A stretch of 64,000 nucleotides of DNA from an uncultured delta proteobacterium (GTDB taxonomy: Bacteria > Desulfobacterota > Binatia > UBA9968). Positions 5,652 to 26,367 of the stretch are shown here, piece after piece. The notes beneath the pieces were generated by a model. That model was not told where the DNA came from. It worked only from the letters and a program-made list of their open reading frames with translations, and searched no databases. Position 1 is the first letter of the stretch. Every line of letters starts with the position of its first letter. The stretch lies in contig CAVUVW010000020.1 of NCBI GenBank assembly GCA_963745035.1, forward strand, positions 32,001 to 96,000, written 5' to 3'. A program made the translations under genes and the position numbers.

Positions 5652-5692
5652 CGTAGTGAGCGCACGTTGAACGGGCTTGGGATCGAGACAGC

Positions 5693-6168
5693 ATGAACGA
5701 GAACGGCAATTCCCGAGGGACAAAGCCACCGCCAGTGCCCGAACACGGCGAACGGCGAGCCTTGAAGCATGGGCTTACCACGATGAAGAAAGCGCTTTCC
5801 GTACTCGGTAACAGGGCGTTAGACGGTAGATTCAAGGTCAGCAAGGAATTGGCGAAATGGCGCCGTGATTTGATCGAAGACTTGGGCGGTGAGGAAAACA
5901 TCAGCGTGCAGCAACGGACGTTCGCCGACCTATGCGTCAAAAACAAGCTGCTGCTCGACTCGATTGACAGTTGGCTCTTAACGCAGAAATCGCTGGTAGT
6001 CGCTAGGAGAAAAACCCTGCTCCCGGCTGTCCTGCAAAGACAACACTAGCCGATGGACTCGCCAAGTATCTCAACATGCTCGGCCTTGAGCGCCGGCAGA
6101 AAGTAAAAACCATCACCGACCTGCTCAACGGCCAAGACGTGGAGCCGGAGGCCGAGACCCGCCAATGA
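5693..6168 (+). CDS. Phage-like protein, possible terminase small subunit (one frameshift near 6045)
   Basis: ALKHGL..., DLIEDLGGEENISVQQ; continues LADGLAKYLNMLGLERR in the shifted frame. Confidence 0.45.
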
Positions 6169-6640
6169 GCGCGTTAACGGAGAAAACGCATCCTGGGCAG
6201 ATTGGGACGGGAGCTGTATGGAACGGTTACATGTGGCAAAACGGAGAGCTTTTCCAAGTAGATAGTTCCGCTCCGGCACCTCACGTACACCGCCTGGCAG
6301 GTTGCACACACAAGCGCACTTTCAAGCGCTCTTTTCCGGAGAAATATGAGTGCTCCTTGGGTGTGGCTGGAAAGTCGAGAATATTCCGATCTTTCAAGCG
6401 GCCTTTGGATTCCGTCTTTACAATTGCTCGGGCATCTACTTTTCATATCGGCCTTCAGTTTTTGTACGCTCGTACTTTCTCCGCAATCGCGGGGGCAATC
6501 CTTTCTCATAAAGCCGGTGACGAATCAAGCCCACGTTGGAGCACACACGAATGGACAGCGTTAACGGCTAGCACGCTGAAACTGAGCATTGACCCATGCC
6601 GAGCCCGCAGAATGCGCCACGACTGCGTTAACGCAGTTAA

Positions 6641-6827
6641 ATGGACACTCTCAGCCGTGCGGTAATCCGTTCTGTTCAGTGCTCGTCAACATCAAGTCAC
6701 CGCGCGGCAAGCATGGGCGGTATTGCTCCGACCACTGCCGGATGACGGCTACGCTTTGAAGCGGGCCAAGGCGCTACTCAACCGCGTGGGCATCATCCGC
6801 TTTCACGAGCTGTTGGACAGGCTATGA
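6641..6827 (+). pseudogene. Small zinc-finger protein, frameshifted
   Basis: CGNPFC...RYCSDHCR...YALKRAKALL pieces across frames. Confidence 0.35.
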
Positions 6828-7031
6828 GACGCTTGAGTCACACTGACACAGGCCTTCGCGGTGCAGGCACAGGCATTCGAACCAAGGAACACCTGGCGCA
6901 TGGAGCTGTTTCTCCACTACTTCAAAACCCTTGCAAACTCCGCTGGCGCGAGAGTACAAGAAGCCACATCCCATGCCGGTTCAATGAACCCGTGAGTTAT
7001 CGTCAATTGACTTAGTCAAACGAGATTCCGC

Positions 7032-10000: not shown

Positions 10001-10428
10001 TCCGTTAGGGAATGGCGATGGTTTACCGCGATTGCGCCGCCTCACTGGCAGATGCTCATAAAAAGATCGGGCAGACCGTCGAAGGGCTCAAGTGTGGTGA
10101 CCGAAGAATTGGTCACGGTAAAAAGCACTGAATGTCGTTGCTACGAAGCTGAACTGCATCGAATTAAAGGGGAATTGCTGTTGACACAGACTGCCACGGA
10201 CGAGAACCAGGCCGAAGCATGCTTCCGAGACGCGTTGGAAGTTGCGCGCGGCAAAGCGCCAAGTCGTTGGAACTGCGCGCAGCGATGAGCCTGGGCCGGC
10301 TATGGCAGAGACAGGAAAAAAAGGCCGAAGCGCAAGAATTACTCGCTGAGGTTTATGGCTGGTTCACCGAAGGGTTCGACACCGCCGATTTGCGAGAGGC
10401 AAAGGTGTTACTCGATGAGTTGGCATAA
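7032..10428 (+). CDS. Class III adenylate/guanylate cyclase with double zinc ribbon, AAA ATPase and TPR tail; multiple frameshifts
   Basis: CPRC/FCGECG ribbons, GERKQVTVLFAD, GDGIMALFGAP, GEAGVGKSRL, EDLHWID, FKHAL, C-terminal WFTEGFDTADL; split over ORFs starting 7032, 8597, 9571, 9968, 10219. Confidence 0.88.
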
Positions 10429-10481
10429 CCAATTGCGGGTGCGGCAAAACAACAACGTAAGACTTTTCAAAGGAGGTACTT

Positions 10482-11222
10482 ATGGCTTTATCTAAACGGC
10501 TGACAGCGGAGTTTCTTGGAACCTTGTGGTTAGTGCTCGGAGGGTGCGGAAGCGCGGTCTTAGCGGCTGCTTTCCCGAACCTTGGAATTGGCCTCCACGG
10601 AGTCTCAGTTGCCTTCGGTCTGACTGTCCTAACGATGGCATACGCCGTCGGCCACATCTCCGGTTGCCATCTCAACCCGGCCGTTTCCTTCGGCTTGTGG
10701 GCAGGTAAGCGCTTCTCCAGCGCCGACTTGATTCCATACATCATAGCGCAAGTCCTCGGCGCGATTGCCGGCGCGTTTGTAATCTATCTCATCGCCACGG
10801 GTAAACCCGGCTTCGATGTCGTTCAAAGCGGATTTGCTGCCAACGGCTATGAAGCCCATTCTCCGGGTGGGTATTCCCTCTTTGCCGCGCTCGTTTGCGA
10901 GATTGTAATGACGTATATGTTTTTGATTATTATCCTGGGTGCCACTCACGGGCGAGCGCCGGTGGGGTTTGCGGGGATTGCCATTGGTCTTGCGTTGACT
11001 CTCATCCATTTGATCAGCATTCCTGTCACCAACACCTCGGTTAATCCGGCCAGGAGTACGGGCCCGGCAATTTTCGTCGGTGGCTGGGCGCTATCTCAGC
11101 TTTGGCTCTTCTGGGTGGCACCGATTATCGGCGCTCTCCTCGCAGGGTGGACATACCTTTGGCTCAGTGAAGAGGAGCCATCAAAGAGAGTTCCAGTTGA
11201 AGGAGATCCACCACGGGGCTAA
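10482..11222 (+). CDS. aqpZ: Aquaporin Z
   Basis: [19 protein letters not shown] and [12 protein letters not shown] boxes; GGAGG RBS. Confidence 0.96.
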
Positions 11223-11415
11223 GAGACCTGCTAAATCGAGATGACGGATCACGTCGAAGAAAACTTGATGTGATCGTTTCAAATGTCTCAGGAAGTTCGG
11301 TAGTGTGAGTTCCGCCGTGACTGCAAATACGTGTGGTAATTGAACGCCGGCACAGCCGTTCCCTTGATTCGAGCCATCATAAAAGCAATGCCCACTCCGC
11401 CGAAAAAAATAGTCT

Positions 11416-11661
11416 CCCACACGGTTTGAGGCATCCTTTGCGAGTCTGTTACTGGCTGACGGCGTTCCGGTGGCGGAGGTCTCTGCTCTACTTGGCCACA
11501 AAGATGCGTACGTAACGTGGAAGGTGTACACGCATTTCGCGAAAAAAGAGAGCACCGCGAGTCAGGAGTTGGAGTTGAACGTCTCCAGCGATGTCTCCAT
11601 CGCGTCAGATTGTGTGAGCTTATGTGAGATGGGCGGAAGCGAAAAAGGCTTGATTTGTTAG
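11416..11661 (+). pseudogene. Tyrosine recombinase (integrase) C-terminal remnant
   Basis: HGLRH then, after a frameshift, FASLLLADGVPVAEVSALLGHKDAYVTWKVYTHF (box II H and catalytic Y). Confidence 0.85.
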
Positions 11662-11703
11662 CTTATTGAAACGAGACAAGCCTAAAAAAGACGTAGCCCC
11701 AGA

Positions 11704-11747
11704 ATTTCCAGTCGTGCACCTTCAACCGCTCGGTCACCTCTCCCGCT
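11704..11747 (-). repeat. att duplicate: displaced 5' half of tRNA-Ser(GGA)
   Basis: Identical to 5358-5401; identity stops one base past the anticodon loop. Confidence 0.92.
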
Positions 11748-12272
11748 CCGGCAATCTTTTGGACTATCGCCCGTGGTTTTGAACCTAACATGCGGCGAGT
11801 GATTTTCTACAAATTGAACCCGAAATCCGAAGCTGTCTGTGATTTGTCCGAGCGGAACGCGATCGCTGATGATCCACGAAAATCGTTGCCAGGTGGCGCC
11901 GGTTGCCGGCTGCGCGCGAACTTGTAGCCGCACACCGGGACTTCACGTTCACGACTCCTGGATCGTGCCCCACGTGTGCCGAGCCAAGCCGCGACCGTGA
12001 AATCCGTGTTGAAACGAAGAATCGCAATGCCGAAGAACTGTCCAAACCGAGGGAATTCTTCCCGCGCGTGTAATTGTTTTTTACGCTTTCGGATAAAAGC
12101 CCGCAGCCTTCACCCGATCTCAATAAAGCGCTGATTAATCGGCGCATTTCGTGGAGCAAACTGGAGCGCACTCTCCTTACCCGATTCTTTTGTCAATAAA
12201 CTTTACGGATGCGGAGCCGGGATGACCAGCATTTCCCTCGTAACTCCATAATTAAGCGGTGATTACATTTCG

Positions 12273-12287
12273 TGGCACTTTGATTGC
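12273..12287 (+). promoter_or_regulatory. sigma54 -24/-12 promoter
   Basis: TGGCAC-TTTGA-TTGC upstream of ORF 12369. Confidence 0.7.
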
Positions 12288-12368
12288 TGCGTTTGTCCAC
12301 CGAAGCTTTCTCGGTAAACTCTTTTGTAAACCGCAGATTGTTCAAACTACATCGCAAAGCGAGTTTAC

Positions 12369-12656
12369 TTGATGCGCTACATCGACCTCCATCGCGCCAA
12401 GGGCGTTAACGACAACTCCGAATCGCCCGCCCATACCGGCGATGCCCCGGCCAGAAATCTGAGCGCGACCGGAGCGCTGACTCGCAACGGCGAAACCATG
12501 ACGTTGATTCCATGGGAGGACATCTGGACGTCGCTGCGAGTGGCCCATATCCGCGGCCACGGCGAGATGATCGACGTCTTCTACGATACGCTTTTTAAAG
12601 AAGCCGTCTTCGACGACGACGGCGCCTGGTCGTCCGATCCAAAAGCCCGCTACTAG
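12369..12656 (+). CDS. Hypothetical protein
   Basis: 95-aa ORF preceded by a sigma54 motif. Confidence 0.5.
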   Translation: MMRYIDLHRAKGVNDNSESPAHTGDAPARNLSATGALTRNGETMTLIPWEDIWTSLRVAHIRGHGEMIDVFYDTLFKEAVFDDDGAWSSDPKARY

Positions 12657-13706
12657 TCTGCGCGTTTCTCACGCGTTTCGTTCATCGCAAAATTCTTCGC
12701 CGACGAATCTCCGCGAACCCGGCAGCAGCGCCGACCGCGGTCGTAAACTCGCCCGTTGCTTCCGAGGAGGCTCGCGACATGAAAACTTCATCGAATGAGA
12801 TATTGTCGAGATCCAGTTCCTTTGAAATGATTAGCCTCATCATAGGGATGGGATCAATGAACGTGCTGATTACGATGGCAATCGAACTCCAAGCGAGTCT
12901 CTTAGGGATTTGTGACGTCAAAGCAGGCAGTTTGATCTGTTGACAAACGGCCTTATGGAAGTGCCGGCCACGGCCGAAGAGTTGTGAGTGAAATGTCTCT
13001 GCGATTTGGCCGATGCAAAAGCATTCGTCAATTGGGCTTCGACGATTAACCGCCGACTAACGATGACCAACTTGCAATTACATTGCTTAGACGAGATGAG
13101 TTCTCGCAAAATCAAATCAAATTGAGAAGCCCTTGCAGCCTTCGCAGCCTACAATTCCCTGAGAGAGGCGCATGAATTTTTCCTGAATATTTCCGGGTCT
13201 CGTTTATCAGAACCCTTTAAAATGGTCTCGGGCTCGGAGTCGGCTACACAAATGCTTGACGAACAGGGTTAGCAGTGTCTCCGTGGATGCGATCACCGTG
13301 TTACGTACTAAGGAAGAAGCGCGTGAGATTTTGGATCTGGCGTGGCAGCTCGATGTGACGATTCACGACAGAATCAGTGTTTCCTCATCTCCCGACGATC
13401 CACCGTCATTTTTGCATTAGGACGGTTTCCTTTTATCCAGGCTTTCGGCACGTCACCGCTGTAAGTCAAAAAGCCATAGGTGGGCCGGATCCTCAAAAAT
13501 CTTGAGCTGCGCTCGACAACGCGGCGGTGTGACGGAAAATTCACATGAAAGCGGTTGATCTTTTACACCGCTAATGGTTTTAGATTGCTACCAGTGGAGC
13601 CGTTTCCGCCAGCAGTTGAGCTCGCATGCTGGCGCATTGAGAGGGCGAGCATGAAATTTCAAACGCGCTTGTTAAAAATTACAGTGTAAAAGCTTGGGTC
13701 TCATTT

Positions 13707-13737
13707 CTTTCCACAACTTATCCACAGGTGTTAATAA
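13707..13737. promoter_or_regulatory. DnaA-box cluster 1 followed by T-rich tract
   Basis: CTTTCCACA (13707), perfect TTATCCACA (13718), reverse TTATTAACA (13729), 2-bp spacers; AT-rich 13740-13855. Confidence 0.6.
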
Positions 13738-13900
13738 CCGTATTTTCAATGTTAGTTTTCGGTCGTTTGTTTGGGGTTTTTCTGTTTTTTAATGCTATAT
13801 GTTTTTAGTTTCATGTAAAAAGCATGTTTTTGACATTTAGGTTTTTGTTCAGAGATAACGCATCCCGCGTTTTCGCTCGAAGAACTGCGTGAGGTGAATT

Positions 13901-14116
13901 TTGGCAAAGGGTAAAGACCGGGAAATTACGATTATTGATCGGAACTCGCCGAGGGTCGCAATCCAGATTACAGAAATTGTGATTGATCCAAAGACGAAAA
14001 CTCGACGCCGCGAATCCGTAGCACACTTGACTGTCACCAATCTTTCAGGCCAAGAGGCGAAGCGCATCATCATTAAAGCGATCGGAAAGCAAGCGGGATT
14101 AAAAAAGTCCGACTGA
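13901..14116 (+). CDS. Small basic hypothetical protein
   Basis: 71 aa, GAGGTG RBS upstream of TTG start. Confidence 0.55.
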   Translation: MAKGKDREITIIDRNSPRVAIQITEIVIDPKTKTRRRESVAHLTVTNLSGQEAKRIIIKAIGKQAGLKKSD

Positions 14117-14470
14117 AACACGATGCAGCGGCTCGAATGCTGGCCTTTTTAATCGCGAGGGCAAGAACAAACACCGCATGCGAAACCTACAATGCTTTCG
14201 CAATCTAATAATTAGCTGCAGTCTTTATTCATTCGCCACGACTCCAAGGTCGTGCGCAGGTCTGGCCTCTGACATACGGAGAGGAGGTTGCTCTGTCTCT
14301 TGTAGAGGAGAACTGCGAGACTTCAGTCTCTGCTTTATGTTTAGTTAAATAATAAGATCCGCGTTCCTTGCGGTCGCGATCCCTGCGTGTCGCAAAATGT
14401 CGTGCTTCCCAGACTTCTTTTTTGTGCGGCTTTCGACCATAGAATTGTGCTCATCTGGGGTGCAATCGTC

Positions 14471-14504
14471 AAATCCACAATAGTTGTCGATAACCTGTTT
14501 ATAA
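14471..14504. promoter_or_regulatory. DnaA-box cluster 2 (degenerate)
   Basis: AAATCCACA (14471), reverse TTATCGACA (14485), reverse TTATAAACA (14496). Confidence 0.45.
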
Positions 14505-14955
14505 GCGAGGCTTTGCGCATCGTTTCCTAGAATGAAATCACCAAAATGCTTATTTTTTGAACGGGAAAAGCGATGCTTTATAGACGACTTCAGACCGGAG
14601 GTGCCTCCAGCGGTGTAGCGATCACAAGACGTAATGGTGGCGAAATCGGCACCTGAGCTGCCAGAATCTATTCGACAATACCTGGACAGCTACGCGCCAG
14701 AATGGCGTCAATCGATCCTGCGACACGGTTAGCTAAAGGCGTGAAGAGTTGTTCGTCCGTGTAGTCTTTGTAAAGATCGGCAAGCCGCTTGGATTCTTCA
14801 GTTGTGGCCATAGCCGCGCGTTATGGGCACTGACGAACAAATCAAGCCCGCGAATGCGTGTTGCTGCGCGTGCTTTTCACCTTCCGGATTTCGACTCGCC
14901 GGCTCCTCCTGTAAAAAAACTTTGGACCGGTCTTCAAGCGAGATAAAATTAAAAG

Positions 14956-15147
14956 ATGATCGTCGTTTACCGCAAGCGCAAAGACGGTTCCCGCTGGCAC
15001 TTCCATACTCTCCATACTCAATGCCCGAATTGGCCGGAGACTAATTATATTCAGGTCCAGTTTGGACAACTCGCCGAAGGTGGGCGCGTTTGTGAAGACT
15101 GCGCTAGGCTCGAATCCCAAATGTTCCCAGGGAAGTGGCGTTGCTAG
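14956..15147 (+). CDS. Small Cys/His-rich putative zinc-binding protein
   Basis: YRK..WHFH...CPNWP...VCEDC; paralogue at 21627. Confidence 0.6.
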   Translation: MIVVYRKRKDGSRWHFHTLHTQCPNWPETNYIQVQFGQLAEGGRVCEDCARLESQMFPGKWRC

Positions 15148-15278
15148 GATTCAAACTGAAGAGCGTTAGCACGACACTGGTGGTCTGCAAGTCGGGTGAC
15201 GTGAGGCACGCGTTTACGGTCGCCTTACGCGCGGCGCTTCAGGCTGCTACTCTATCAGCATAGAACAACGCAACTGTC

Positions 15279-16442
15279 TCAAAGCGGGAATGATATCCTA
15301 AATGTCGTTCCTTTGCCTACGTCGCTGACGTAGTCCACGGTCCCACGATGATCGCTAATAATCTGTTGTACAATTGGCAGTCCTAAGCCTGTACCTTCGG
15401 GCTTGCTACTTTTAAAAAGATGAAAAGCATCAAAATCTTCGGGTATGCCCTCCCCAGTGTCACTAACCTCAAGGACGAAGCGATCGTTTGTCCGATAACC
15501 TTTCAGAGTTAGAGCACCGCCGTTCGGCATAGCCTCAACCGCATTTTTGCAGAGATTTAAAATGACCTGTTTGATTTTTGCCGCATCGAGAGGCACAAGG
15601 GGCAGAATCTCATCAAAATGAATCCCAACGGCCACGCCGACGGCTTCATAACTTTTTAGATTGGGAGCGAGAACTTCTTCGATTATCTGCCGCAAATTGA
15701 TTTCTTCGATTTTAAGCGCCTGCGGTCGCGCGAGCGACCGATAGTCACCGAGCAGCATAGTCAATCGCTGGATTTCTTGGTGGGCTCCCTCGAGAGTCTC
15801 TCTGAGGAGCGGATTCTCATAGCTCGACTCGTTTACAAGATCGGTCATGATTTGTAGCGAGGTCGAGAGACCGTTTAGCGGATTAGCGATCTCATGAGCA
15901 AACACGGCGGCTGTGGTTCCCAGAGTCGCTAGACGTTCGGTCTCGTTCACCCGTTGCTCGGATGCTTTACGCTCCGTAATATCGCGCACCACCTTCGCGA
16001 AACCCGTCAGGTTTCCAGAAGGATCGTGAATAGCCGTGATCACCACATTGGCCCAAAAGACCGAGCCATCCTTGCGCAGGCGCAGGCTTTCGTCTTCATA
16101 TCTTCCCTTTGTCGCAGCAATTTCCAAATTTCGTTTCGGTATATTGTTCCGAAGATCATCGGGCGGGTAAAAGCGCGAGAAGTGCTTGCCGACAATTTCG
16201 TTCGCTTGATAGCCTTTGATGCGCTCGGCACCCGTGTTCCAGCTGACTACGTATCCATTGGGGTCCAGTATGTAGATCGCGTAATCTTGTATACTCTCAA
16301 CGAGTACGTGGAATCGCTCCTCGCTTTGACGAAGTTTCTCAGTTGTCGGATCATGATCCGGGTTATGCGCCTGCAATTTGTGAGTGACTTGTTTTGGCTG
16401 GGAAGAGAAAAGCCAACGCTTTACTGTTTGCAAGATGCCCAT
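15279..16442 (-). CDS. PAS-domain sensor histidine kinase
   Basis: PAS (DYAIYILDPNG, WNTGAERIKGY), H-box FAHEIANPL, N/G boxes NAVEA, GTGLGL. Confidence 0.93.
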   Translation of the reverse strand: MGILQTVKRWLFSSQPKQVTHKLQAHNPDHDPTTEKLRQSEERFHVLVESIQDYAIYILDPNGYVVSWNTGAERIKGYQANEIVGKHFSRFYPPDDLRNNIPKRNLEIAATKGRYEDESLRLRKDGSVFWANVVITAIHDPSGNLTGFAKVVRDITERKASEQRVNETERLATLGTTAAVFAHEIANPLNGLSTSLQIMTDLVNESSYENPLLRETLEGAHQEIQRLTMLLGDYRSLARPQALKIEEINLRQIIEEVLAPNLKSYEAVGVAVGIHFDEILPLVPLDAAKIKQVILNLCKNAVEAMPNGGALTLKGYRTNDRFVLEVSDTGEGIPEDFDAFHLFKSSKPEGTGLGLPIVQQIISDHRGTVDYVSDVGKGTTFRISFPL

Positions 16443-16445
16443 CGC

Positions 16446-16820
16446 CTATGGTGCATTGCGGGGCGTCACACTCGTTACTTTGCTCAGCAACTCAGCGAGG
16501 GAGATAGGCTTTTCGAGGTACATTACATTGAGGTCGTGAGCGCGTTTCTGGAGCTGATTCGAGCCAAATGCTGTCACAAGAATACAGAGCGTATCAGGAT
16601 CGATTTTTTGCTGATACGAGATCACATCCATTCCGTCAGCCACGCCCGCCATGCGGAGATCGGAAACGACAATGTCGTATCGGTCTATTTGAGTAATTAG
16701 CCGAATAGCTTCTTCGCCGTTGGCGGCTTCATCGACTTCGATCTGGGCGCGTCGAAGATATAAAGCCGTATTTCTTCGGGTGAGCGTGTCGTCTTCGACC
16801 AGGAGAACACGGGTTGGCAT
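16446..16820 (-). CDS. Single-domain response regulator
   Basis: VLLVEDD, VSDLRM, VTAFG, KP. Confidence 0.9.
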   Translation of the reverse strand: MPTRVLLVEDDTLTRRNTALYLRRAQIEVDEAANGEEAIRLITQIDRYDIVVSDLRMAGVADGMDVISYQQKIDPDTLCILVTAFGSNQLQKRAHDLNVMYLEKPISLAELLSKVTSVTPRNAP

Positions 16821-16879
16821 GGTGGGTGTGGCTCGAAGTCGAACAAATTTAACATTAATAACTTTGATGGCTCAAATCA

Positions 16880-17150
16880 AGAACGCATTTGACAGGAACG
16901 CGCCGACCGCCTTGGCAACCGGGCATGGACGGCTGGTCCCGCATGACACGAGGCGGTCGGCGGTGTGTAACTTCCGGCGGGCGGACCTAACCGAAAAGAA
17001 GGAATGAAGCGCAGCGGCCGGGAGACGGACTCGATTTATCGCCGGTACGACATCATCAGCGACGACGACCTAACCGAGTCAATGAATCGCGTTCAGGAGC
17101 ATTTGAAGAAAGAGGCGGAGAACCGGAAGGTTCTGCCGCTACAATGGCTT
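16880..17150 (+). pseudogene. Tyrosine recombinase C-terminal remnant beside the 3' end of tRNA-Ser(CGA)
   Basis: PHDTRRSAVCNFRRA then MKRSGRETDSIYRRYDII (degenerate HDLRR...SGH.T..Y). Confidence 0.75.
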
Positions 17151-17290
17151 AACGTGGGTCCAAAGAACTTCACAAAACATGCACAAAAGGGCACTTTTCG
17201 AGGGTTGGGATAACTTGATTTTTCCTGCACAGACGTTTACCTGGGCATCAAGAAACGGGGGTAACTCTTTGCTGATTCAGCAGAAAGAAT

Positions 17291-17382
17291 TGGCGGAGAG
17301 GGAGGGATTCGAACCCCCGTTACCCTTCCGGGTAAACTTGATTTCGAGTCAAGCGCCTTCAACCGGGCTCGGCCACCTCTCC
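17291..17382 (-). tRNA. tRNA-Ser(CGA)
   Basis: GGAGAGG acceptor, anticodon arm CTTGA-CTCGAAA-TCAAG, long variable arm, GGTTCGAATCC, CCA. Confidence 0.97.
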
Positions 17383-17449
17383 GTAAGTGTGTCACTATTG
17401 CTGAATTATCTTTTTCTTTCAAGGCGTTGCTCATGGCATAGCGCGCGAT

Positions 17450-17720
17450 TTCTTTGCGGAAGTCGTACGCAACGGATTTGTGCCGCGTGTCCGGCGCGAA
17501 GTCTATGCCGCGCTCACTCCGCTGCACACTGACAAGTGCCCCTTCGTCAACTTACCCGAGAAACGCCGGACGGCGTGGTCGCTCACGGCGAAAAAAATGA
17601 AAGACTGCCGCTGGGTCAACCCGAGCTGCGTTGCTCAAATCGAATTTACCGAGTGGACGCCCGACGGCCATCTAAGACATTCAAGCTTTGCAGGATTACG
17701 GGAAGATAAAGATGCTCAGT
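17450..17720 (+). pseudogene. ATP-dependent DNA ligase (LigD-type) C-terminal OB-domain fragment
   Basis: NGFVPRVRR...CPFVNLPE...WVNP..VAQIEFTEWTPDGHLRHSSFAGLREDK; no catalytic N-terminus. Confidence 0.8.
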
Positions 17721-18822
17721 ACAGCACGTTGAACGGGAATAGGGGTGGTCTGCTGCGTCGCGGCCCGAATGGATACTGGGCGCTGCGCATCACCGCCGCA
17801 TGATCTAAGCGAGTTCCTGCTGCCGGTTGCAGGTGGCGAGCGGGCCGAGCTACGGGTTTGCCTTCCGCCGGCCGGCCTGATATCTGACGCGGGCGTGCTC
17901 TACACCATCAAGCTTTACGCCTACTTCTTTCACGCCAACGTGCCTACCGTAGTCGTCGCCAACCGCTGGCTGACCGGCTTCGCGCTGCCGCTGCTGCTGA
18001 TCGCCCTCACGCTCGTGTACTCTTACGCCGTCATTCGCTTTGGTCGCTGGCTCTTCGGTCGAAAGAATTTGTGATCGGCGTACTGCTCCCGACCTTCTCG
18101 AGCACGCGGCGAAGCCAGTCGATCTTTGGTTTATTCTCGCGGTAGCTGGCCGCGAGCTCGTTCATCTCCCCGACGATCTTCTCAGCACAGGCCAGCGCGA
18201 TGCCGCGCGCCGTGACGCGGAGCTTCTCGCGCTTCCGTAGCTCCTCCCGGCCGTTTCGGGTGTCGCCCTGAAGCGTGCGGCGATAGCGGCGCACCAGCCA
18301 CGCCCTATCGTCGAGCGACTTTTCCAGATACTCCATCGCATCGTAGAGTTTCACCAGCCGGAGCTCGCCCACGTCGAGCGCCCCGTGGCGGAGCAGATCG
18401 ACCGCCCACGCCGGATTCATCGCAGTCAAGTAATAACCACCGTCGGCACCAGGTGATGCACCGCAATCTCCGCCAGTGCGAGCCCGAACCACGCTGCCAG
18501 CTCCTCGTCCTCGTAGGCCAATGAAGGGTCCGAGTAGTCGTCGACGCCATAGAGTGAGTTATCCGGCATGTCGAGGTAAACCCACCCGACCGCAAACCAC
18601 GTCCGAGTCGTTGTGTACCCTGAGCGCTCTGCCGCAGAGGCGAAAGCCTTTGTAGCGCTCAATGGATGTTTCGTGGCCGTACATCGAAAGATATTTCGAT
18701 ACGCGGGGAAAACCGCGGTGCAACAGATAAAAACCCGACCGACGGGGGACACCGGGAAGCCGCTTCAAATTATTTTTTTGCCCACCTTACTAGACCCGCT
18801 CATTTGTGTCTAAGCTAGTTCA

Positions 18823-19131
18823 GTGGAACTGCGTGATCACCCGCTGCTGCATTACTACGGCCTTCGTTGCTGGCCTCCGACCTGGAGTCCAATCAAAGAG
18901 CCTAAGAATAAATGCATCACGGGGGAAGTCGGCGTACTAAAACGGGGATCCTATTCGTCAATGGCGGGCTATGTCTGCCACTTGTACACCGAATATGAAG
19001 GCCGAAATTACATAGGCACACTTCTCATAGATGATGCCGCGTTTTGTCGGCAGCTCTTCTTTGCGCTGCATCACCATACGAACCTCTCAATGGAAGAGAT
19101 CGGCTCCTTAGATATGTCCTATACGCTCTAG
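18823..19131 (+). CDS. LRDHP/WPP family small protein, copy 1 (unknown function)
   Basis: LRDHP..WPP.W..GEVGVL..Y.G.L..C..IGSLD; four paralogues elsewhere in the window. Confidence 0.85.
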   Translation: MELRDHPLLHYYGLRCWPPTWSPIKEPKNKCITGEVGVLKRGSYSSMAGYVCHLYTEYEGRNYIGTLLIDDAAFCRQLFFALHHHTNLSMEEIGSLDMSYTL

Positions 19132-19146
19132 GCCACCTTACACACC

Positions 19147-19479
19147 ATGTCTATTCGGGTTGTGCAGCTCCGTGACCACCCGCTAATGACACGCAAAAGC
19201 GGTGTCCCGACGTGGCCGCCGAAATGGACGACGACCCGCACAGACGCCAACGATAGGCCCATTGGCGAAGTTGGAACGCTTCAGCAACCATTGATGAACG
19301 AGTTAATGGAAACCAAGATTTTCTTGTTTATAGACTATAACGGCTCTCGCTATATGGGTATGCTGGTTTTTGATGACCAAATATTCTGCTCAAAAATCTT
19401 CGCTCTATTAAAAGTAAAAGCCAATGTAGGCCGTTCGATCAAAGAAATCGGCGACTTGGATTTGTCGCATACGTTTTGA
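19147..19479 (+). CDS. LRDHP/WPP family small protein, copy 2
   Basis: Same motif order, tandem with copy 1. Confidence 0.85.
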   Translation: MSIRVVQLRDHPLMTRKSGVPTWPPKWTTTRTDANDRPIGEVGTLQQPLMNELMETKIFLFIDYNGSRYMGMLVFDDQIFCSKIFALLKVKANVGRSIKEIGDLDLSHTF

Positions 19480-19914
19480 TTTCCAGGACAACACGCCATT
19501 ACCCCACCACCCGGAGCTTGGGCAGCTAAAAGATCAACCCGCCCGACGCGCAGCAGATCAGCGACCTCAGCCGATTGTGCCGAGCGATCAAGATTGGCGA
19601 AGACTCATCGTTTGAAGATCGTTAATCACGCCGACAGCAAATCACTCGCAAGCTCCAGCTCGTACCCATCGGCGCCTTCCAAAACGGCCTGAAGTCTCGC
19701 CGCGCTGAGGGCGCCTTCACCTTGCTTGCCGTCGCTTTTGGGTAGTGTCCTAATTTGATTTGGCTATTTTTGTTTTGTCGGGTTTTGGCAAAAGGCAGGT
19801 TCAAGGGGTTTGCCCAACGCTCCCCCGCAGCGATCCAAGAAAGGTGAAGAGCACGCAGAGAACACGCATCCGAGACATAGCTGGTTTTGAAGATCAGCGG
19901 CACCAGCAGGCGGT

Positions 19915-20800
19915 TTACTTTTGGGCGACCACGAACACGCCGCCGCAGAGCAAGTCGTCAATGGCGTAGTTCTGGAAGCTCTGATGCGGGCGGATGTTGG
20001 GGTGCTTCCGGATGCGGTTCCGCTCGGCTTGGAGAATCCTGAATCCGGCCTCTTTTATGATCTTCAAGTGATCGCTCACGCGAAGCCGGTTTTGGTAGTG
20101 CAGGGGCGGGTTCATGAGTGCCCATGTTTGCGGCGAGTAGCGCAGAAAATTGCAATGGGAAATCGAGCGGTCGAAGCGCGAGTAGTGATCGGCGGGGTCG
20201 ATGGCAGCGCAGAACAAGCCGCCGGGACGGAGCAGTTCCCGGCAATGCTTGACCAGAGCGGGAAGCACGTTTGCCGAGATATGCTCCATGACCGACGTGC
20301 TGGAAATCAAGTCCAGGCCGGTGGGGCTCTCCATTTTCAGCAAATCGCCCACGCGATACTTAATACCCATCGCGCTCAAATCGGTGACGCCATTGATGCG
20401 GTTGGGCAGAGCAAAAACATTTGCGCCAGGTGCGCGCTCCGCGACCTTATCTGCTAGCCTGTGCGCTTGATCCAGCGTCTCGTTAATCAGGTCGTAATGA
20501 AGTTTCGCGTTGATGTCGATCAGCGTTTGATCGCGCATGCCAAGCGCGCAGAGCGCCACGGCGATGGCGCAATCCCAGCCCGCGCCAAACTCCAAGCAGC
20601 GTGCATCGCTTACCGTCGTGTCCGTGTACTGCTTGAGCGCCGCGACGTAGAGCCCGGCAAATTCGCAATGAGCCAAAAACGTTGCGTCGGAGTGCGGCAG
20701 GCCGTGCGTTACGTGGCGTTGGAGAAAGTAGTTAAGGCTGTTGCCGCCTGGCAGGCGGGAGAGGACTTGCTGGCCCAGGGCTTTGGCGATCCAGGCGCCT
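19915..20800 (-). CDS. Class I SAM-dependent methyltransferase
   Basis: LEFGAGWD motif I, STSVMEHI, LRPGG; frame stays open upstream to about 20800. Confidence 0.8.
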
Positions 20801-21120
20801 TACAGCATAGGGAACGATTTCTAAGCCGACGCCAAAGGATGTCAAGCCGAAAATTGTCCGATTTTGCCGGCGCCCGCTCCGGCGTAACCTCACCGCACCC
20901 GCCGGACATCGTAGCCATTGAATGCAGGCTGACCGCGCGAACTTACCCGTAAGGCTTTAAACGGCTCTCGCGGTGGCGGCGCGCCGGGGGTCGATCCTAT
21001 CGATACAGAGTTAAAACGCGTTTGCCACTTACTGCCAGACCGTGCGCTTGCTGCGCCGGTCCCGTTCAATAGCTTGCGAGATGAGGAAACGGAAGAAGGT
21101 AGTCGGTGCAGTTAGCGTTG

Positions 21121-21492
21121 CTAGTCCAAGCCGAAAACGAAATAAATAATTACTGCAATCCCGAACGCAGCTAAAAGCAGATTTGTATAGACGCCCATAT
21201 TGACCCAGTAGCTTTCTGGAATTTCTATCGGCCTTAGAGTTTTAAGGACGCCCCGGTATTGAACTACGGACAGCACGGAAACAATGGCCCCAAAGAGAAT
21301 GAACGATATTCCAACCCAAAATGATCCATTTCGTCGCGCATGATCGCCCTGGCTCATCAAGAACATATGAAGGAAAAGCCCGAAGCGCTCTATGGCGAAT
21401 CCGAACGCCATTAAGGCCACCGTCGTGCGCGTCCATGCCATTAGGGTGCGCTCTGCCGCAAAAAATACCCTTGGGTCATTCAGGTCTGACAT
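21121..21492 (-). CDS. DUF202 / YidH-like membrane protein
   Basis: FAAERTLMAWTRT..GFAIERF signature. Confidence 0.88.
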   Translation of the reverse strand: MSDLNDPRVFFAAERTLMAWTRTTVALMAFGFAIERFGLFLHMFLMSQGDHARRNGSFWVGISFILFGAIVSVLSVVQYRGVLKTLRPIEIPESYWVNMGVYTNLLLAAFGIAVIIYFVFGLD

Positions 21493-21626
21493 GGCGTGGT
21501 AGCGTATATCTTTTTACTGCGGGCGTGAATCTCAAGTAGTTTTTCCGAAATTGTTCAATCGTGCATACGGGTTTGCGCCACGGGCAGAGCTAGATTATTA
21601 TCCGGTCCGACAAAGGGTGTAGCCCC

Positions 21627-21822
21627 GTGGAATACCGTCGAGATTCAATGGAGAAGACTTGGCACTTCTGTCGGAATTGCTCCAAGTGGCCATACGAAAG
21701 TTTCAACATAATGCGACTGCAAGACTTCCCCGCCACAACTTGAACTCTGCGCGGAATGCGTCGAACTGAAGCGCGATGACCAGTGTCGCGTAACTAGCCT
21801 CTCTATTGAGTTTGAACCCTAG
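21627..21822 (+). CDS. Small zinc-binding protein, paralogue of 14956 (one frameshift)
   Basis: YRR..TWHFCRNCSKWP, shift, ELCAEC. Confidence 0.55.
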
Positions 21823-22364
21823 CAAGGGACGTACTCGACACGATAATCCGGCTGGAAGGATGGGAGTGGTCGAGCAGAGATGGCAGTCGATCCTCAATGA
21901 GTCGCGCGCGTTCGGCGCAGATCGACTAAAATCGGTAGACAACGGTGATCCGCCGCAATCCTCATGGCGACGACGGATGCCAGGTAGGAGATTGATGTGA
22001 AAACAGTTTAGCATGCTGGCCATTTGCGTTTGGCCACTCTTGGAACCGCCGTACAAGAACAATGCTCCAATTCTCGACGCGCCGTTCAAGCAATGGACTG
22101 TTGCCACATATAATCGGGATGGGATTAGCCTTCCATATTATTTTGATACGCGCAAAGAATGTGAGGACCGGCGAAGGGCCTACTGTACAGCGCTCATAAG
22201 GCATGTTTGGCCATGAACGTGCCGTCATGAAAGAGGCATGACCGACTCCGAAATACGATCAAAAAATTTTTAAATAAAGAAGGATGGGAGCCCTCGACAA
22301 TGCCCCCGACCACTTAAAAGAAATTTTAACCAATCCGAATTAATGAACCAATCTCCTCCAGTTT

Positions 22365-22577
22365 TTATCTCTCTGCATCAATCCATTTCTTTCCGCACCG
22401 AACTCCCCAGGCTTCGGCTTCGGCTACCGAATCGAAGATCTCTTCCGGTTTCAAAGGTTGAAAAGTTTCGCGGCCCTCCTCACCCCAGGAGACCATTACG
22501 CTTGCAATCCATTTTTGGCTGTCTGGCGTCTGATGGCCTACTGATTCAATTCTACGGCTAGCGTACAGGCGTCTCAT
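22365..22577 (-). CDS. Small hypothetical protein
   Basis: 70 aa with GGAGG RBS; ends EAEAWG...KKWID. Confidence 0.65.
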   Translation of the reverse strand: MRRLYASRRIESVGHQTPDSQKWIASVMVSWGEEGRETFQPLKPEEIFDSVAEAEAWGVRCGKKWIDAER

Positions 22578-22845
22578 GGTTTCCTCCCGGCTGGAGCGAT
22601 TAAAACATCCTTGGCTGGATATAAGTCCTGCCGTCCCAGCCGTTCTTCTTCCTAAATTCCTGAAGGTACTGCTCTACCAAAAACTGCGCTTCCTGCTCCG
22701 AAATAATCCCATGCGTCCGCGCAGACGCAATAGTTTTCCCCCAAATACGCCCTTCGACTTCCGTCCGATTCACATGGCCTCCGAGCTTGAAAATCCAGAA
22801 CGTCTACCATGTTCCATTCGCAAAGCCAACCGACAAACTTCCTCA

Positions 22846-23147
22846 TGCTATCAGCGTATTGCTAGGGTCATCCGGCAATTCAAGTTCGCCAACCTCACCT
22901 TTTTCGTTCGGTGCTTCCTGCGTGAGCGCCCAGGCCAGGGTCAAGGCCGCTTTGATCGCGTCGGCTTCCCCGACTTCTTAACACAGGAATATAGAATCGT
23001 ATCCCATGGCCGCCGGCCGTCTTGGTCGAAGTCGAAGGCAAGCCGCAGGATTTCCCGTTGGTGATCCATCAGGCTGAAGGTGTCGCCGCGCTCGTTCTTC
23101 TTGATCAGCTTGTCTATGAACGTGATGGTGGGAATCAGCTTTGCCAT
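22846..23147 (-). pseudogene. Phage terminase large subunit N-terminal remnant
   Basis: LMDHQREIL (Q-motif) and ILYSCVKKSGK (terminase-type Walker A), then frameshift and decay. Confidence 0.7.
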
Positions 23148-23333
23148 GGTGCTTGACTTAGTATCTCCCTTTTCAGTATAAGCGTACGCCTACTAGCGAG
23201 GTGCTTGCTATGCAACGGGAAATGATGATCGTGATCTCCATCGAGGCGTACACAGCAATATTGACGAAATGCGATGCCCGCCAGGAGTATGCTCTGTTAA
23301 TAAACGGTATCATCGCCTGCGATAGCGAAGCAA

Positions 23334-23693
23334 TTGGCTTTTGCGCTTGCTAATAGCGAGATGCCTTTTTCCTCTGCACGCGCCTTGATCTTGGCCATGA
23401 ACTGCGCCGGCAAGGCCAGCCAATGCCTCACAACTTGGCCGCCGATCGTCACCCTCGGGAAAGTCGATATAAGCGGGCGCGTCACGATCCCGCCAGTTGC
23501 ATGTCTCGACGACGTTGTCACGGACGCGCGATCGGTGAGCCCTAACACTATTACTCTTGATCTCCTTAACCGCGAACGCGAGGAGTACAAGATCAGCCTG
23601 CCCCTTGCCCCATCTCTCCAAGCCAAAGTGCTCGTCCAAATTGCTAAGCAGCGACGCATTAGCCTCCGAGAAGTCGGAGAATTGCGGATATGA
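23334..23693 (+). CDS. Hypothetical protein, possible distant LRDHP/WPP family member
   Basis: TWPP...Y...ISLREVGELRI. Confidence 0.4.
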   Translation: MAFALANSEMPFSSARALILAMNCAGKASQCLTTWPPIVTLGKVDISGRVTIPPVACLDDVVTDARSVSPNTITLDLLNREREEYKISLPLAPSLQAKVLVQIAKQRRISLREVGELRI

Positions 23694-24034
23694 CGTTCGG
23701 GTCTGTCATAATTCGTCCAGCAAGGCAATGAAACTGGAGGATGCCGACGCGATTGAGCAACGCCTTTGCCCGCCTGAGCGCGTAACCATTCCGGCAGCGA
23801 TCAGAGCAGTAGCGTTTGCCGCGCTGTGCCTTAACGGTGATAGGTGCCTTGCAGAAGGGATTAGCGCACCGCTCAGAATCCCTGCTAGTAGCCGTTAACG
23901 GCTCAACAGCGCTTTCTTGCGTTCTGTTGGGGTCCGTGCCTCTGTGTCACGGTTGCCGGCCGGCCTCCATTGATCGACCCACGCCTGGATGGGCATCCTT
24001 GACAAAGGCTCTCACTACAGAGGATATTGCCGAC

Positions 24035-24340
24035 ATGTCGCGAAAGTTTTGGGCCGTTCTTCTTATCTTCGGCTGGGTCAGTCTTTCAGGCTTTGATGTC
24101 CTCGACGATCTCGACGAAGTTCCCGGTCAAGCGGCTGTTTCTCGCAGCTCGCATGAAGGTTCCAGCTCGAAGCGGGCGATGGGAGCGCTCCCGAACAACA
24201 TTATCGAGTCGGCAAGTCCCATACCCGAGGTGCAGGGGCTGATCGTCAATCTCGTCCAGGGTATTTTGCCCGTTTATTCAACCCCCGATTTTCACCGTCA
24301 TTCCCAACTCCACAAGCTCTACCACGTCTTTCTGATTTGA
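24035..24340 (+). CDS. Hypothetical protein with N-terminal hydrophobic segment
   Basis: MSRKFWAVLLIFGWVSLSGFD...KLYHVFLI. Confidence 0.5.
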   Translation: MSRKFWAVLLIFGWVSLSGFDVLDDLDEVPGQAAVSRSSHEGSSSKRAMGALPNNIIESASPIPEVQGLIVNLVQGILPVYSTPDFHRHSQLHKLYHVFLI

Positions 24341-24818
24341 CCTCCCGGTTTCTTTTCCATTACTGAATTTGTTGCGTTGGGCGGGGCTGACACTGCCAAC
24401 GTAGATTGTATTGGATTCAGTTTGGCAGTCGCCACCCTGAAGGGGAAAGGAAACTAGTCGTGGAAGATTTTCCTATTTTGTTAAAGGTTATTGTTTGGCT
24501 GGTTGTCGGCGGCACCGTTGCTTATGCTATCGGCGCTGCGATCTATAGCGGGATGATGGGATAAAGCTCAGGTCCAGGCACGTCGGGCTCCAACGTGCGA
24601 AAAAACCTTCGGGATATTGTGCTGGTCGCCATCATGGTTGTCATTTTTTACTTGGCTCTTCAACTGCTGTTGGGAAGCTAGACGTCACCATCGCGCAACT
24701 TGGACATAAGCCGTATGGTGTTGCTCGTTTTTCTTGACCAGCTTGTCGATGAAGGTGATAGGGTGAATCAGTTTGGTCATGGTCCATGGATCCCGTGATT
24801 TAGTCGGCGGTCACTGCG

Positions 24819-25013
24819 TTGGATTCATGCCCGCATTGCGGCAGTCATAGCTTCGAGCGCTCTCATCGCAGCCGCTGGGAACGTTTGTTGAGCAGCCCCA
24901 TAAATGCACGCCTGTTTCGCTGCCGTGATTGCAACTCCCGCTATTGGGTAACTCCAAACGGCATTTGGGGACGTGGCTTTTTTCATCTTCTTTGGTTGCT
25001 GATTCGACGATAA
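24819..25013 (+). CDS. Zinc-ribbon small protein
   Basis: CPHCGS...FRCRDCNSRYW. Confidence 0.55.
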   Translation: MDSCPHCGSHSFERSHRSRWERLLSSPINARLFRCRDCNSRYWVTPNGIWGRGFFHLLWLLIRR

Positions 25014-25670
25014 ATTCGCTGTTTCATACTTCGTCGAGCAGAGTGTGAAATTGGACGATGCCGACTCGGTTGATGGCTGTGCGTCGGCAACTTCGTTGTT
25101 GAGCGCTTGCAACAGCAGAGTATCGAGCGCCCCGTCTAGCAACGAGCATGCGCTCTACGGTGGAAAGATCGCGGCCAAGATTGGCCTCAAGCTGGCGCGC
25201 CGTTTCGAGCACCATTTTCCCGATGATCGTCCGCTTATCCAGTCCGCCACCCGGCTCTTAACCGGCCTACCAGGGAATAATATGAGAGTGAGGGGTCCTC
25301 CACGAGCGTGTCGCCCCTTCCCTGCTCCGCCCCGCTGCCACAACCTTGCTCGACACTGGTTCGATTTCTATGCCTAACCCTACTCTAAACATTCAGATAA
25401 AATCAGACAGCGGCTAAAAACGCCTGTATCTCGAATATTTACAAAGCGCCGCTCGACTACCACTTCAGTGCGTCTCGGCAAATTTCCACACCCCGGCGTT
25501 CGCTGCGCATAGCTCAATAAGGGCACCGCAGGCGCATCAGGACTGCGCGAATGTTGTCGGAATCTTTTTAGCTGTCGGTGGTGGTCGATGCTTGTCGATT
25601 CCGCACAAGCACGAGGATTATTCTGTCTGTGGCTGACGGTGGTATAGCGGAGAGGTGGGTCGGTGCTGAC

Positions 25671-25713
25671 TTTCGAGTCAAGCGCCTTCAACCGGGCTCG
25701 GCCACCTCTCCGT
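25671..25713 (-). repeat. att duplicate: displaced 5' half of tRNA-Ser(CGA)
   Basis: Identical to 17342-17384; identity ends at the anticodon loop. Confidence 0.92.
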
Positions 25714-26182
25714 GTGTTTGGCGTTTTTGCTGCCGCAGACGCGCAAAAAAATCGGCGAGCAAAGCCGCCGACTGCTCGGCAAGCACGCCGCCGATGGCGG
25801 GCAATTGGTGATTCAGCCGTTGATCCTCACATAAACGATAAAGCGATTCAACCGCGCCGGCCTTGGGATCGAGACAGCCAAACACCAACCGGCGCATACG
25901 TGCCTGAAGGATCGCGCCGGCGCACATCAGACAAGGCTCCAAAGTAACGTACATGTCGCATTCTTCGAGACGCCAGGTGCGCAGGTGGCCCGCCGCGGCG
26001 GCGAGCGCGATCATCTCGGCGTGGGCCAGAGGACTCTGCCGCTCCTCGCGCCGGTTAAACCCGGCGCCCACGACCTCTGCGCCAAGAACGACCACCGCGC
26101 CCACCGGCACTTCTCCCTTGGCCGCCGCTTGGCGCGCCTCGGACAGCGCCAGATTCATGTAGCGGATGTCTTGGTTTTCCAT
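25688..26182 (-). CDS. tadA: tRNA-specific adenosine deaminase
   Basis: GEVPVGAVVV, HAE, TLEPCLMCAGA, DPKAGA. Confidence 0.96.
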   Translation of the reverse strand: MENQDIRYMNLALSEARQAAAKGEVPVGAVVVLGAEVVGAGFNRREERQSPLAHAEMIALAAAAGHLRTWRLEECDMYVTLEPCLMCAGAILQARMRRLVFGCLDPKAGAVESLYRLCEDQRLNHQLPAIGGVLAEQSAALLADFFARLRQQKRQTHGEVAEPG

Positions 26183-26367
26183 TTCGGGACGGAATTCCAA
26201 TGTACCACGCGCGGCGCGGTGACGGAACGCACGCGGGGCGACGTGGCGGTTGGTTTTCCTGGATTACCGGTTCACAGGCAGCAAAGCATTGTCTACCAGC
26301 GGAAGGATTACCCCCGCCGGGAAAATTGTTCTCGGCCGCGGATTTCGCGTTGAGCGAAAGCTTACGC

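Follow-up and report, generated by a model that had tools for sequence, protein, structure and literature searches.

Island B, the 8286-bp interval that separates an intact tRNA-Ser(CGA) gene from a tadA-like gene in the 64-kb stretch analysed here (the window), is very probably the relic of a phage-like integrative element, decayed and no longer mobile, that was put into the anticodon loop of tRNA-Ser(CGA) by the site-specific recombination of a tyrosine integrase. This reading is drawn from a repeat of the tRNA 5' half that ends at the loop, an empty site in relatives, a foreign base composition, a mosaic of mobile gene content, and a layout that recurs at other tRNA genes. Island B is an ordinary, decayed case of a rare and already described mode, the mirror image of the usual island insertion.

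Results

The repeat at tRNA-Ser(CGA) and the empty site

The junctions of island B are made up of the following features.

17291..17382, minus strand: intact tRNA-Ser(CGA) gene (ARAGORN and Rfam)
17342..17384, minus strand: repeat copy 1, tRNA positions -2 to +41, within the working tRNA; attR-like junction
17385..25670, strand not given: body of island B, 8286 bp, between the repeat copies
17394..17422, minus strand: sigma-70-like promoter match (TTGAAA, 17 nt, AATAGT) within the island; consensus match only
25647..25659, minus strand: 13-nt stretch complementary to the 5' acceptor strand of this tRNA, lying 11 nt beyond the orphan half
25671..25713, minus strand: repeat copy 2, the orphaned host tRNA-Ser(CGA) 5' half, still joined to tadA; attL-like junction
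25688..26200, minus strand: tadA-like tRNA adenosine deaminase gene, whose stop codon falls within the tRNA 5' half

The tRNA-Ser(CGA) gene is the sole gene with a CGA anticodon found in the assembly. A repeat search returned a direct repeat (17342-17403 and 25671-25732), the first 43 bp of which are perfect (17342-17384 and 25671-25713). On the tRNA strand, the identical block begins 2 nt before +1 and breaks off after nt 41, the final base of the anticodon loop CTCGAAA, a symmetric sublocation. Both the repeat search and the tRNA-strand alignment therefore confirm the 43-bp repeat of the tRNA 5' half, ending at the anticodon loop, that a preliminary description of this DNA had reported. By chance, about 3e-17 perfect 43-mer repeats would be expected in 64 kb.

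An uninterrupted site was found in 4 of the 11 relative loci (L003/G005, L010/G021, L011/G015, and L013/G009; G005 is an unpublished genome). As tadA lies immediately next to an uninterrupted tRNA-Ser(CGA) gene in these four relatives, the 8286 bp that part the two repeat copies were gained by insertion, and the earlier proposal that removal of the interval restores the junction of tadA and tRNA agrees with the empty-site comparison. Island B as a unit was not found in 89 other genomes of the family. Four public runs from three studies (40-75% of sampled words, short contigs) listed no contig bridging 17385 or 25670 and no joint skipping exactly 8329 bp; where joints in these runs connect the tRNA with the tadA region across unknown letters, they probably come from relatives with an empty site. 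Neither an excised form of island B nor an independent assembly bridging either of its junctions was seen. An exact 20-mer search of metagenome contigs for other copies of the attL junction gave three matches, all in one unrelated gene and without a tRNA. The assembly of the source genome comprises 28 contigs, and its estimated contamination is 5.8%.

Contents of island B

The G+C content of island B is 54.4% vs 62.2-62.4% in its flanks. The island is a mosaic of gene fragments common to other tRNA islands of the same genome, and individual segments match parts of those islands at 70-96% identity. The following contents were recognized.

17480..17803, plus strand: ATP-dependent (LigD-type) DNA ligase fragment, C-terminal part only
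18823-19131 and 19147-19479, plus strand: two adjacent paralogous genes of ~100 aa each
19915..20676, minus strand: SAM-methyltransferase-like ORF, 253 aa
21121..21492, minus strand: DUF202 membrane protein ORF
22365..22577, minus strand: small ORF with a CV_2116 domain
22902-23149, 23349-23409, 23692-23905, and 24723-25006 (span 22902..25006), strand not given: rearranged pieces of a ~765-bp unit

The family of the two ~100-aa paralogues, which is without a Pfam family, has 38-39 tblastn matches in this genome. The SAM-methyltransferase-like ORF has a copy, with 74% identity, in the tRNA-Met island of contig C21, and the CV_2116 ORF sits in a 520-bp segment that is 93% identical to C11:139733-140245. 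At least six further islands of the genome also contain the ~765-bp unit, a phage-like piece with two small zinc-finger ORFs and the beginning of a terminase-large-subunit-like gene. In island B, the terminase-like gene ends after ~20 codons (about 24650..24590, minus strand), and where packaging, replication, or structural genes of a prophage or phage satellite would be looked for, the island has only these codons and the two small zinc-finger ORFs. Fuller relatives of island B on contigs C13, C26, and C6 carry TerL-like, Bbp16, Prim-Pol, and integrase genes.

No integrase was detected in island B by Pfam searches of its 27 ORFs or by a six-frame PF00589 search of the genome, and tblastn with 20 integrases of this genome gave no credible integrase remnant. 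Likewise, a profile HMM of the related integrase clade described below (alignment A1) had no match in the window (best E = 3). As such, the enzyme of island B is inferred and not seen. Two candidate traces were rejected. A weak collinear tblastn pair at 24505-24757 (E 0.16) proved to be another frame of the conserved terminase-like gene start, and the peptide behind this match recurs in the same frame in all other copies of that start. An apparent motif directly upstream of the tRNA (17385-17500) scored 0.4 bits against the clade HMM.

Signals at the junctions

The sigma-70-like match ends 11 nt before tRNA +1, and such matches are as frequent in the region as expected (5 found vs 5.4 expected). 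At the other junction, the orphan half and the 13-nt complement form a 72-nt stretch that is predicted to fold into a tRNA-like junction without a T arm (-31.9 kcal/mol, z -3.75; matched by 0 of 200 shuffles). The arm motif next to the loop was not enriched in the window (22 matches vs 21.2 expected).

Recurrence of the 5'-half layout

Four of the 47 tRNA genes of this genome (Ser-GGA, Ser-CGA, Ser-UGA, and Leu-CAA) have an upstream copy of their 5' half on the same contig. The neighbouring case lies in the window.

5306-5397, minus strand: tRNA-Ser(GGA), neighbouring 5'-half case

Here a perfect 44-bp repeat (5358-5401 and 11704-11747) is found. Since the tRNAs and the repeats differ, the events at tRNA-Ser(GGA) and tRNA-Ser(CGA) are independent, and the earlier argument that two such events in neighbouring serine tRNAs exceed chance is borne out. 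The data support the view that both islands are genuine reverse-polarity (5'-half) insertions at the anticodon loop. Further 5'-half duplicates, for which a survey had been suggested, do exist in this genome (Ser-GGA, Ser-UGA, and Leu-CAA) and in relatives.

In the relatives G008 and G031, tRNA 5' fragments adjoin tadA, and in both, tadA, the orphan half, and foreign DNA lie on one contig (of 169 kb in G008). More specifically, G008 carries the orphan half of the same tRNA next to tadA, together with an integrase C-terminal fragment that ends 10 nt before the intact tRNA; the best BLASTP matches of this 97-aa fragment are members of the clade (43-47% identity). Its orphan half is followed, ~55 nt on, by sequence resembling a T arm and acceptor 3' strand. 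In G031, the orphan half is followed by the conserved terminator of the integrase family. Classical 3' fragments of tRNA-Ser(CGA), starting at query position 35-37, were found in seven relatives. Between the two tRNAs of the window, no distal 3' fragment of a classical remnant was found (local alignment score 21 vs a shuffled mean of 19.7).

A related integrase clade

The clade of alignment A1, which belongs to a related integrase family of this class, targets Ser-UGA, Sec, Leu, and Arg tRNA genes, and its integrase gene mostly reads into the tRNA 5' end. The integrase gene is followed by a co-oriented tRNA within 12-160 bp at 11 of 12 public genome loci, 3 of the 12 having a 5'-half repeat within the 10-kb flank. 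Twenty further regions comprise 13 co-oriented cases, 5 opposite cases, and 2 without a tRNA. In the closest clade loci, the integrase frame is unsplit and ends 12-65 nt before the tRNA. A conserved intrinsic terminator lies 30-45 nt behind the orphaned 5' half at 7 of 10 reverse-polarity junctions compared, and compensatory changes are seen in 4 of the 10 pairs of its hairpin. No such terminator is present behind the orphan half of island B, which thereby has neither hallmark of the clade, as no integrase gene abuts its tRNA. Being without a detectable integrase of its own, island B is not assignable to the clade. In viral contigs, the best match to the clade integrases is only 29% identical, so these contigs offer neither close relatives of the clade nor a free attP to inspect.

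Discussion

We propose that a tyrosine integrase would have inserted the element into the anticodon loop of tRNA-Ser(CGA), with a crossover that may have fallen within the 7-nt loop. The host 5' half would have been left on the tadA side as an orphan (25671-25713), and the working gene (17291-17382) would be a hybrid, with an element-borne 5' half and a 3' half from the host. The hybrid gene would depend on transcription signals inside the island, including an island-supplied promoter, and probably runs on such signals now. The integrase gene would have been lost from the island later.

Several other histories could lead to a similar arrangement. It is possible, although unlikely, that the element bore a complete tRNA-Ser(CGA) gene and that loop-to-loop recombination produced two full hybrid genes; the 5'-half appearance would then be secondary, as a deletion would have removed the variable and T arms of the tadA-proximal copy. 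The acceptor complement behind the orphan half, with its tRNA-like fold, and the sequence resembling a T arm and acceptor 3' strand in G008 are what such a deletion might leave. However, identity in island B ends exactly at the loop end without fading, and at 7 of 10 junctions it ends at or just after the loop and is followed by the terminator, with no trace of a 3' half. A very unlikely history is that of an assembly artefact, in which an empty chromosomal site was wrongly joined to an episome with the 43-bp segment by way of the repeat common to both. The number of contigs and the estimated contamination of the assembly would suit such an error, as would the lack of any listed public-run contig crossing a junction, but usual read lengths exceed the 43 bp of the repeat, and the missing integrase and many gene fragments are more in keeping with DNA long resident in the chromosome than with an active episome. 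Moreover, tadA, the orphan half, and foreign DNA are joined on single contigs in other assemblies (G008 and G031).

The lack of a recombinase in the interval would also suit a segmental duplication or recombination event that copied the front half of the tRNA by chance. This history was already disfavoured and has the slightest probability of those considered, as the anticodon-loop boundary recurs at four tRNAs of this genome and, in relatives, beside integrase genes, while the interval itself is compositionally foreign and absent from relatives. Site-specific integration into the anticodon loop, followed by decay, remains the reading that we prefer.

Reversed polarity, in which a 5' fragment is displaced, is a minority mode that is already in print, and Zhao and Williams reportedly catalogued it in 2002. 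Like bacterial tRNA-gene islands of reverse target-gene orientation, in which the 5' fragment is the displaced one, island B lies between an intact tRNA and an upstream direct repeat of its 5' part, and the front of the gene is supplied by the element and not by the host; unlike them, it has lost its integrase and most genes. The suggestion that 5'-half elements would be missed by existing tools was overstated, as the configuration filter of Islander keeps 5' fragments lying upstream of the tDNA. The Islander filters also require an integrase gene inside the island, and none was found in island B.

Three further systems can be compared. The pTN3-like integrases of the Thermococcales, which are archaeal and of SSV type, use a tRNA-gene 5' half as attB (for pTN3, the shared stretch is 41 bp; Cossu et al. 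2017, PMC5495485; review PMC8371274), and integration of this kind rebuilds a full tRNA that is parted from its original promoter (PMC5495485, PMC8371274), as in island B. However, attP of pTN3 is situated within the integrase ORF, and integration splits the gene (PMC5495485, PMC8371274), whereas the frame in the bacterial clade ends before the tRNA and is unsplit. The arg2 islands of Klebsiella also lie upstream of the target tDNA, unlike all others surveyed there, and this placement follows the integrase clade (bioRxiv 10.1101/2020.11.02.365908); their sublocation is the D-loop, in contrast to the anticodon loop at which identity ends in island B. Classical anticodon-loop islands, which are among the sublocation classes of Williams 2002 (as given in bioRxiv 10.1101/2020.11.02.365908 and PMC8371274), share with island B the presumed crossover site, a 7-nt loop flanked by a symmetric stem, but the element carries the opposite half of the gene.

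The preliminary description also proposed a family of elements with reversed polarity. The four duplications in this genome, the fragments in G008 and G031, and the co-oriented clade loci (11 of 12) speak for such a family; the membership of island B does not follow, as it lacks an integrase. With four 5'-half duplications in the genome and a related integrase family reading into the tRNA 5' end, reversed polarity is real and recurrent. Going further, we suggest only tentatively that soil Binatia and their relatives may host a family of small phage-like elements, in which the integrase reads into an element-supplied tRNA front half, a conserved terminator stands behind the orphaned host half, and at least three switches of polarity (5' or 3') have occurred inside a single integrase clade, with even close relatives differing at the same tRNA-Arg.

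For annotation, the ~20 kb between tadA and dnaX are a stack of three island remnants, placed around two serine tRNA genes; two of the remnants have reversed polarity and one is classical. Both polarities occur in this lineage at one and the same anticodon loop, and it carries an integrase clade with the reversed layout as the norm, which makes the lineage convenient for studying an integration mode that is rare, catalogued, and little analysed. If the tentative Binatia family is real, it would offer a natural series in which to learn how the direction of tRNA-site integration is determined and how an element comes to control the expression of an essential host gene.

The target tRNA genes and the uninterrupted site

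Across the whole window ARAGORN predicts two tRNA genes. Both are encoded on the minus strand, and Rfam agrees with both calls.

RNA genes
5144-5242, signal-recognition-particle (SRP) RNA (Rfam)
5306-5397, minus strand, tRNA-Ser(GGA) (ARAGORN, Rfam)
17291-17382, minus strand, tRNA-Ser(CGA) (ARAGORN, Rfam)

A repeat search of the window gave the direct repeat 17342-17403 / 25671-25732, of which the initial 43 bp are perfect. On the tRNA strand the identity begins 2 nt 5' of +1 and extends as far as nt 41, which is the final base of the loop CTCGAAA, so that the perfect 43-bp repeat ends at the anticodon loop as the preliminary description had it; the chance expectation for a perfect 43-mer repeat in 64 kb is about 3e-17. 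The second 5'-half event that it proposed, at the neighbouring tRNA-Ser(GGA), is borne out by a repeat that is just as exact (5358-5401 = 11704-11747, 44 bp). The minus-strand order is tadA (26200..25688), the orphan (displaced host 5' half) of tRNA-Ser(CGA), island B, tRNA-Ser(CGA), 5.5 kb of low-G+C DNA, the tRNA-Ser(GGA) orphan, island A, tRNA-Ser(GGA), SRP RNA and dnaX.

Removal of the interval was said to restore a tadA-tRNA junction, and this uninterrupted site exists in relatives. When tRNA-Ser(CGA) was searched against 40 relatives and 11 loci were fetched, a tadA homologue ran directly into an intact tRNA-Ser(CGA) in four (genomes G005, G021, G015, and G009). The two Ser tRNAs of G005, an unpublished genome, are 125 bp apart, and therefore every insertion is absent there. 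Their spacing is 0.86 kb in G021 and 1.25 kb in G015, and the inter-tRNA DNA of both matches window 12498-12646, so that part of 11748-12700 is native. The tadA frame ends 22-34 nt inside tRNA-Ser(CGA) in the window (25688-25713) and in G005, G021, and G015 (loci L003, L010, and L011), and it stops 10 nt short of the tRNA in G009. Because of these frame ends, the native tRNA is probably co-transcribed with tadA, judging from sequence. A terminator-like hairpin lies within the tadA 3' end at 25750-25773.

Content of island B

The 8286 bp of island B have 54.4% G+C, versus 62.2-62.4% in the flanks. Pfam matched just three of its 27 ORFs (to a partial, C-terminal ligase, a methyltransferase, and DUF202); NCBIfam typed the ligase fragment as LigD and added a CV_2116 domain, and PHROGs contributed no match other than the ligase. 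The island as a whole was looked for in 89 other genomes of the family and not found. At 70-96% identity, its pieces recur in other tRNA islands of the source genome (contigs C13, C21, C26, C14, C15, C19, C6, C12, and C7). One unit of about 765 bp, contiguous in other islands, is rearranged into pieces in island B; within it are two short zinc-finger ORFs and the first part of a gene resembling a terminase large subunit, here broken off after about 20 codons. Fuller relatives carry TerL-like, Bbp16, Prim-Pol, NinG-like, and integrase genes. Given these shared, rearranged pieces and phage-like fuller relatives, island B is best read as a mosaic scar left by a family of phage-like elements.

An integrase was found in island B neither by the Pfam scan of the 27 ORFs, nor by tblastn with 20 integrases of the source genome, nor by an HMM of the 5' clade, the integrase family whose gene points into the 5' end of the tRNA. 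When the whole genome was searched in six frames with PF00589, island B likewise gave no match, the sole match on the contig being in island A (11416-11547). Island B is thus an integrase-less scar, and for that reason it is not assignable to a particular integrase family.

A family of roughly 100-aa proteins occurs at 18823-19479 in island B and at 49101-49836 and 53599-53904. It gave 38-39 tblastn matches across the genome, frequently as tandem pairs and frequently in islands; no Pfam family matched, and the Atlas offered only weak reductase-C-terminal-like leads (score 0.93, 145-162 shared features). Elsewhere in the source genome, C11:129797-140245 contains an attP-like site made up of the tRNA-Ser(CGA) anticodon loop together with 16 nt from the 3' side of that gene. 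In front of the site is a near-palindrome closely resembling the island B arm adjoining the loop; a Xer-like integrase comes 400 bp after the site, and a segment with 93% identity to window 22378-22900 is 10 kb away from it.

Neighbouring remnants

The cargo of island A (5402-11703) is broken, with a single long zinc-ribbon / adenylate-cyclase / STAND-NTPase gene in four frames; its integrase remnant differs from the type on contig C24 in both family and layout. Between the two Ser tRNAs, 12700-17290 is the remnant of a third island, classical in polarity and with 49.5% G+C; a distal 3' fragment for it was looked for and not found.

Features of island A and the third remnant
7032-8588, 8597-9229, 9571-9858, 9968-10288, frames of the split gene, island A
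10482-11222, intact MIP channel gene, island A
about 11383-11670, plus strand, integrase C-terminal remnant reading toward the orphan half, island A
15279-16442, minus strand, PAS histidine kinase, third remnant
16446-16820, minus strand, response regulator, third remnant
16915-17114, plus strand, frameshifted integrase C-terminal remnant reading toward the tRNA-Ser(CGA) 3' end, third remnant

A repeat scan also showed nine 21-bp tandem units in a row at 51401-51610 and a segment of about 100 nt present twice, 43 kb apart (2314-2415 and 45489-45591, 87-96% identity).

Reversed polarity in the source genome and its relatives

When all 47 tRNA genes were compared with the assembly by BLAST, upstream same-contig 5'-half copies were found for four, Ser-GGA, Ser-CGA, Ser-UGA (C24), and Leu-CAA (C15); ordinary 3' fragments were many. 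An integrase gene pointing into the tRNA 5' end survives in the C24 island in broken form, its catalytic tyrosine motif being in a different frame. Its relatives are proteins of 388-402 aa (107 matches at E <= 1e-10). With an alignment of 27 C24-type integrases as query, 12 loci were obtained from genome_contigs, mostly from Binatia MAGs; a co-oriented tRNA follows the integrase gene by 12-160 bp in 11 of them (Ser-UGA six, Sec five), and three of the 12 have a 5'-half repeat inside the 10-kb flank. Across the class, 39 of 401 genomes had a match at E <= 1e-30. Among 20 regions from this set, six apparently the same contigs as in the 12-locus set because their lengths are identical, the tRNA is co-oriented with the integrase gene in 13, opposite in five, and absent in two.

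A survey of the lineage along the lines that the preliminary description had advised produced further cases. The integrases were placed on a rapidly built maximum-likelihood tree with 27 rows, from which the short fragments L022, L024, and L025 were left out, as was the second piece of any split gene. On this tree 17 rows are labelled 5' (the element carries the 5' half) and six 3', at least three changes of label are required, and among the 5' rows sit a Leu-GAG group and a single Arg-ACG row that are labelled 3'. Visual comparison of the Arg-ACG pair showed homologous integrase 3' ends with a tRNA that points in opposite directions in the two members. The proposed family with reversed polarity stands as far as four of 47 tRNA genes here and an integrase clade in relatives go; the assignment of island B to that clade does not, as no integrase was found in it.

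At about 12007-14800 of locus L041 (genome G164), tRNA-Arg(ACG) has an integrase gene on each side: a decayed integrase gene faces the tRNA 3' end, and another with an open frame runs into the 5' end. tRNA-Ser(CGA) of the window shows this double occupancy too. At L020:3804-3954, a tRNA-Sec lying immediately 3' of a clade integrase has, 3 nt beyond its end, a perfect duplicate of its positions 43-95.

Relatives also have insertions at tRNA-Ser(CGA) itself. A slightly decayed orphan adjoins tadA in G008, followed by 11.9 kb of unrelated DNA; on a different contig, an intact tRNA-Ser(CGA) lies 10 nt beyond the end of a C-terminal integrase fragment of 97 aa, whose best BLASTP matches are 5' clade members (43-47% identity). 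In G031 the orphan is followed by the terminator of 5'-clade elements; in G013 the contig ends at the loop, and this case was counted as ambiguous. Seven relatives have 3' fragments of tRNA-Ser(CGA) starting at query position 35-37, so this loop is used in both polarities.

Signals at the junctions

A strong intrinsic terminator stands 30-45 nt behind the orphan in seven of 10 reverse-polarity junctions; four of its 10 stem pairs are changed on both sides (compensatory), and the loop is conserved. Examples lie at L015:2600-2650, L017:7905-7950, L019:6690-6735, L044:3495-3540, L001:14365-14415, and L004:2270-2320, and the targets of elements with the terminator are Ser-UGA, Sec, Leu-CAA, and Ser-CGA.

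In the junction comparison this terminator is absent behind the island B orphan. In its place is a 13-nt complement to the acceptor 5' strand, and a 72-nt stretch of the junction folds tRNA-like without a T arm (z -3.75). On a less likely rival reading, this could be left over from a more complete copy of the tRNA that the element carried. A promoter-like site in island B ends 11 nt before tRNA-Ser(CGA); such sites occur in the region at chance level (5 versus 5.4 expected).

Relation to known islands

There is good support for reading island B as an insertion of reversed polarity, and islands of this kind are rare but known. According to the Islander paper, candidates are rejected if their 5' fragment lies downstream or their 3' fragment upstream; an upstream 5' fragment is therefore accepted, and the concern that tools looking only for 3' fragments would miss 5'-half islands is overstated, since Islander keeps them. 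In the pTN3 paper (PMC5495485), a legend gives 41 bp as the shared length and has the tRNA restored but cut off from its promoter, and in Klebsiella a preprint describes islands inserted on the upstream side of arg2 (bioRxiv 10.1101/2020.11.02.365908). The wider pattern of reversed polarity in the lineage is a more interesting by-product than island B itself.
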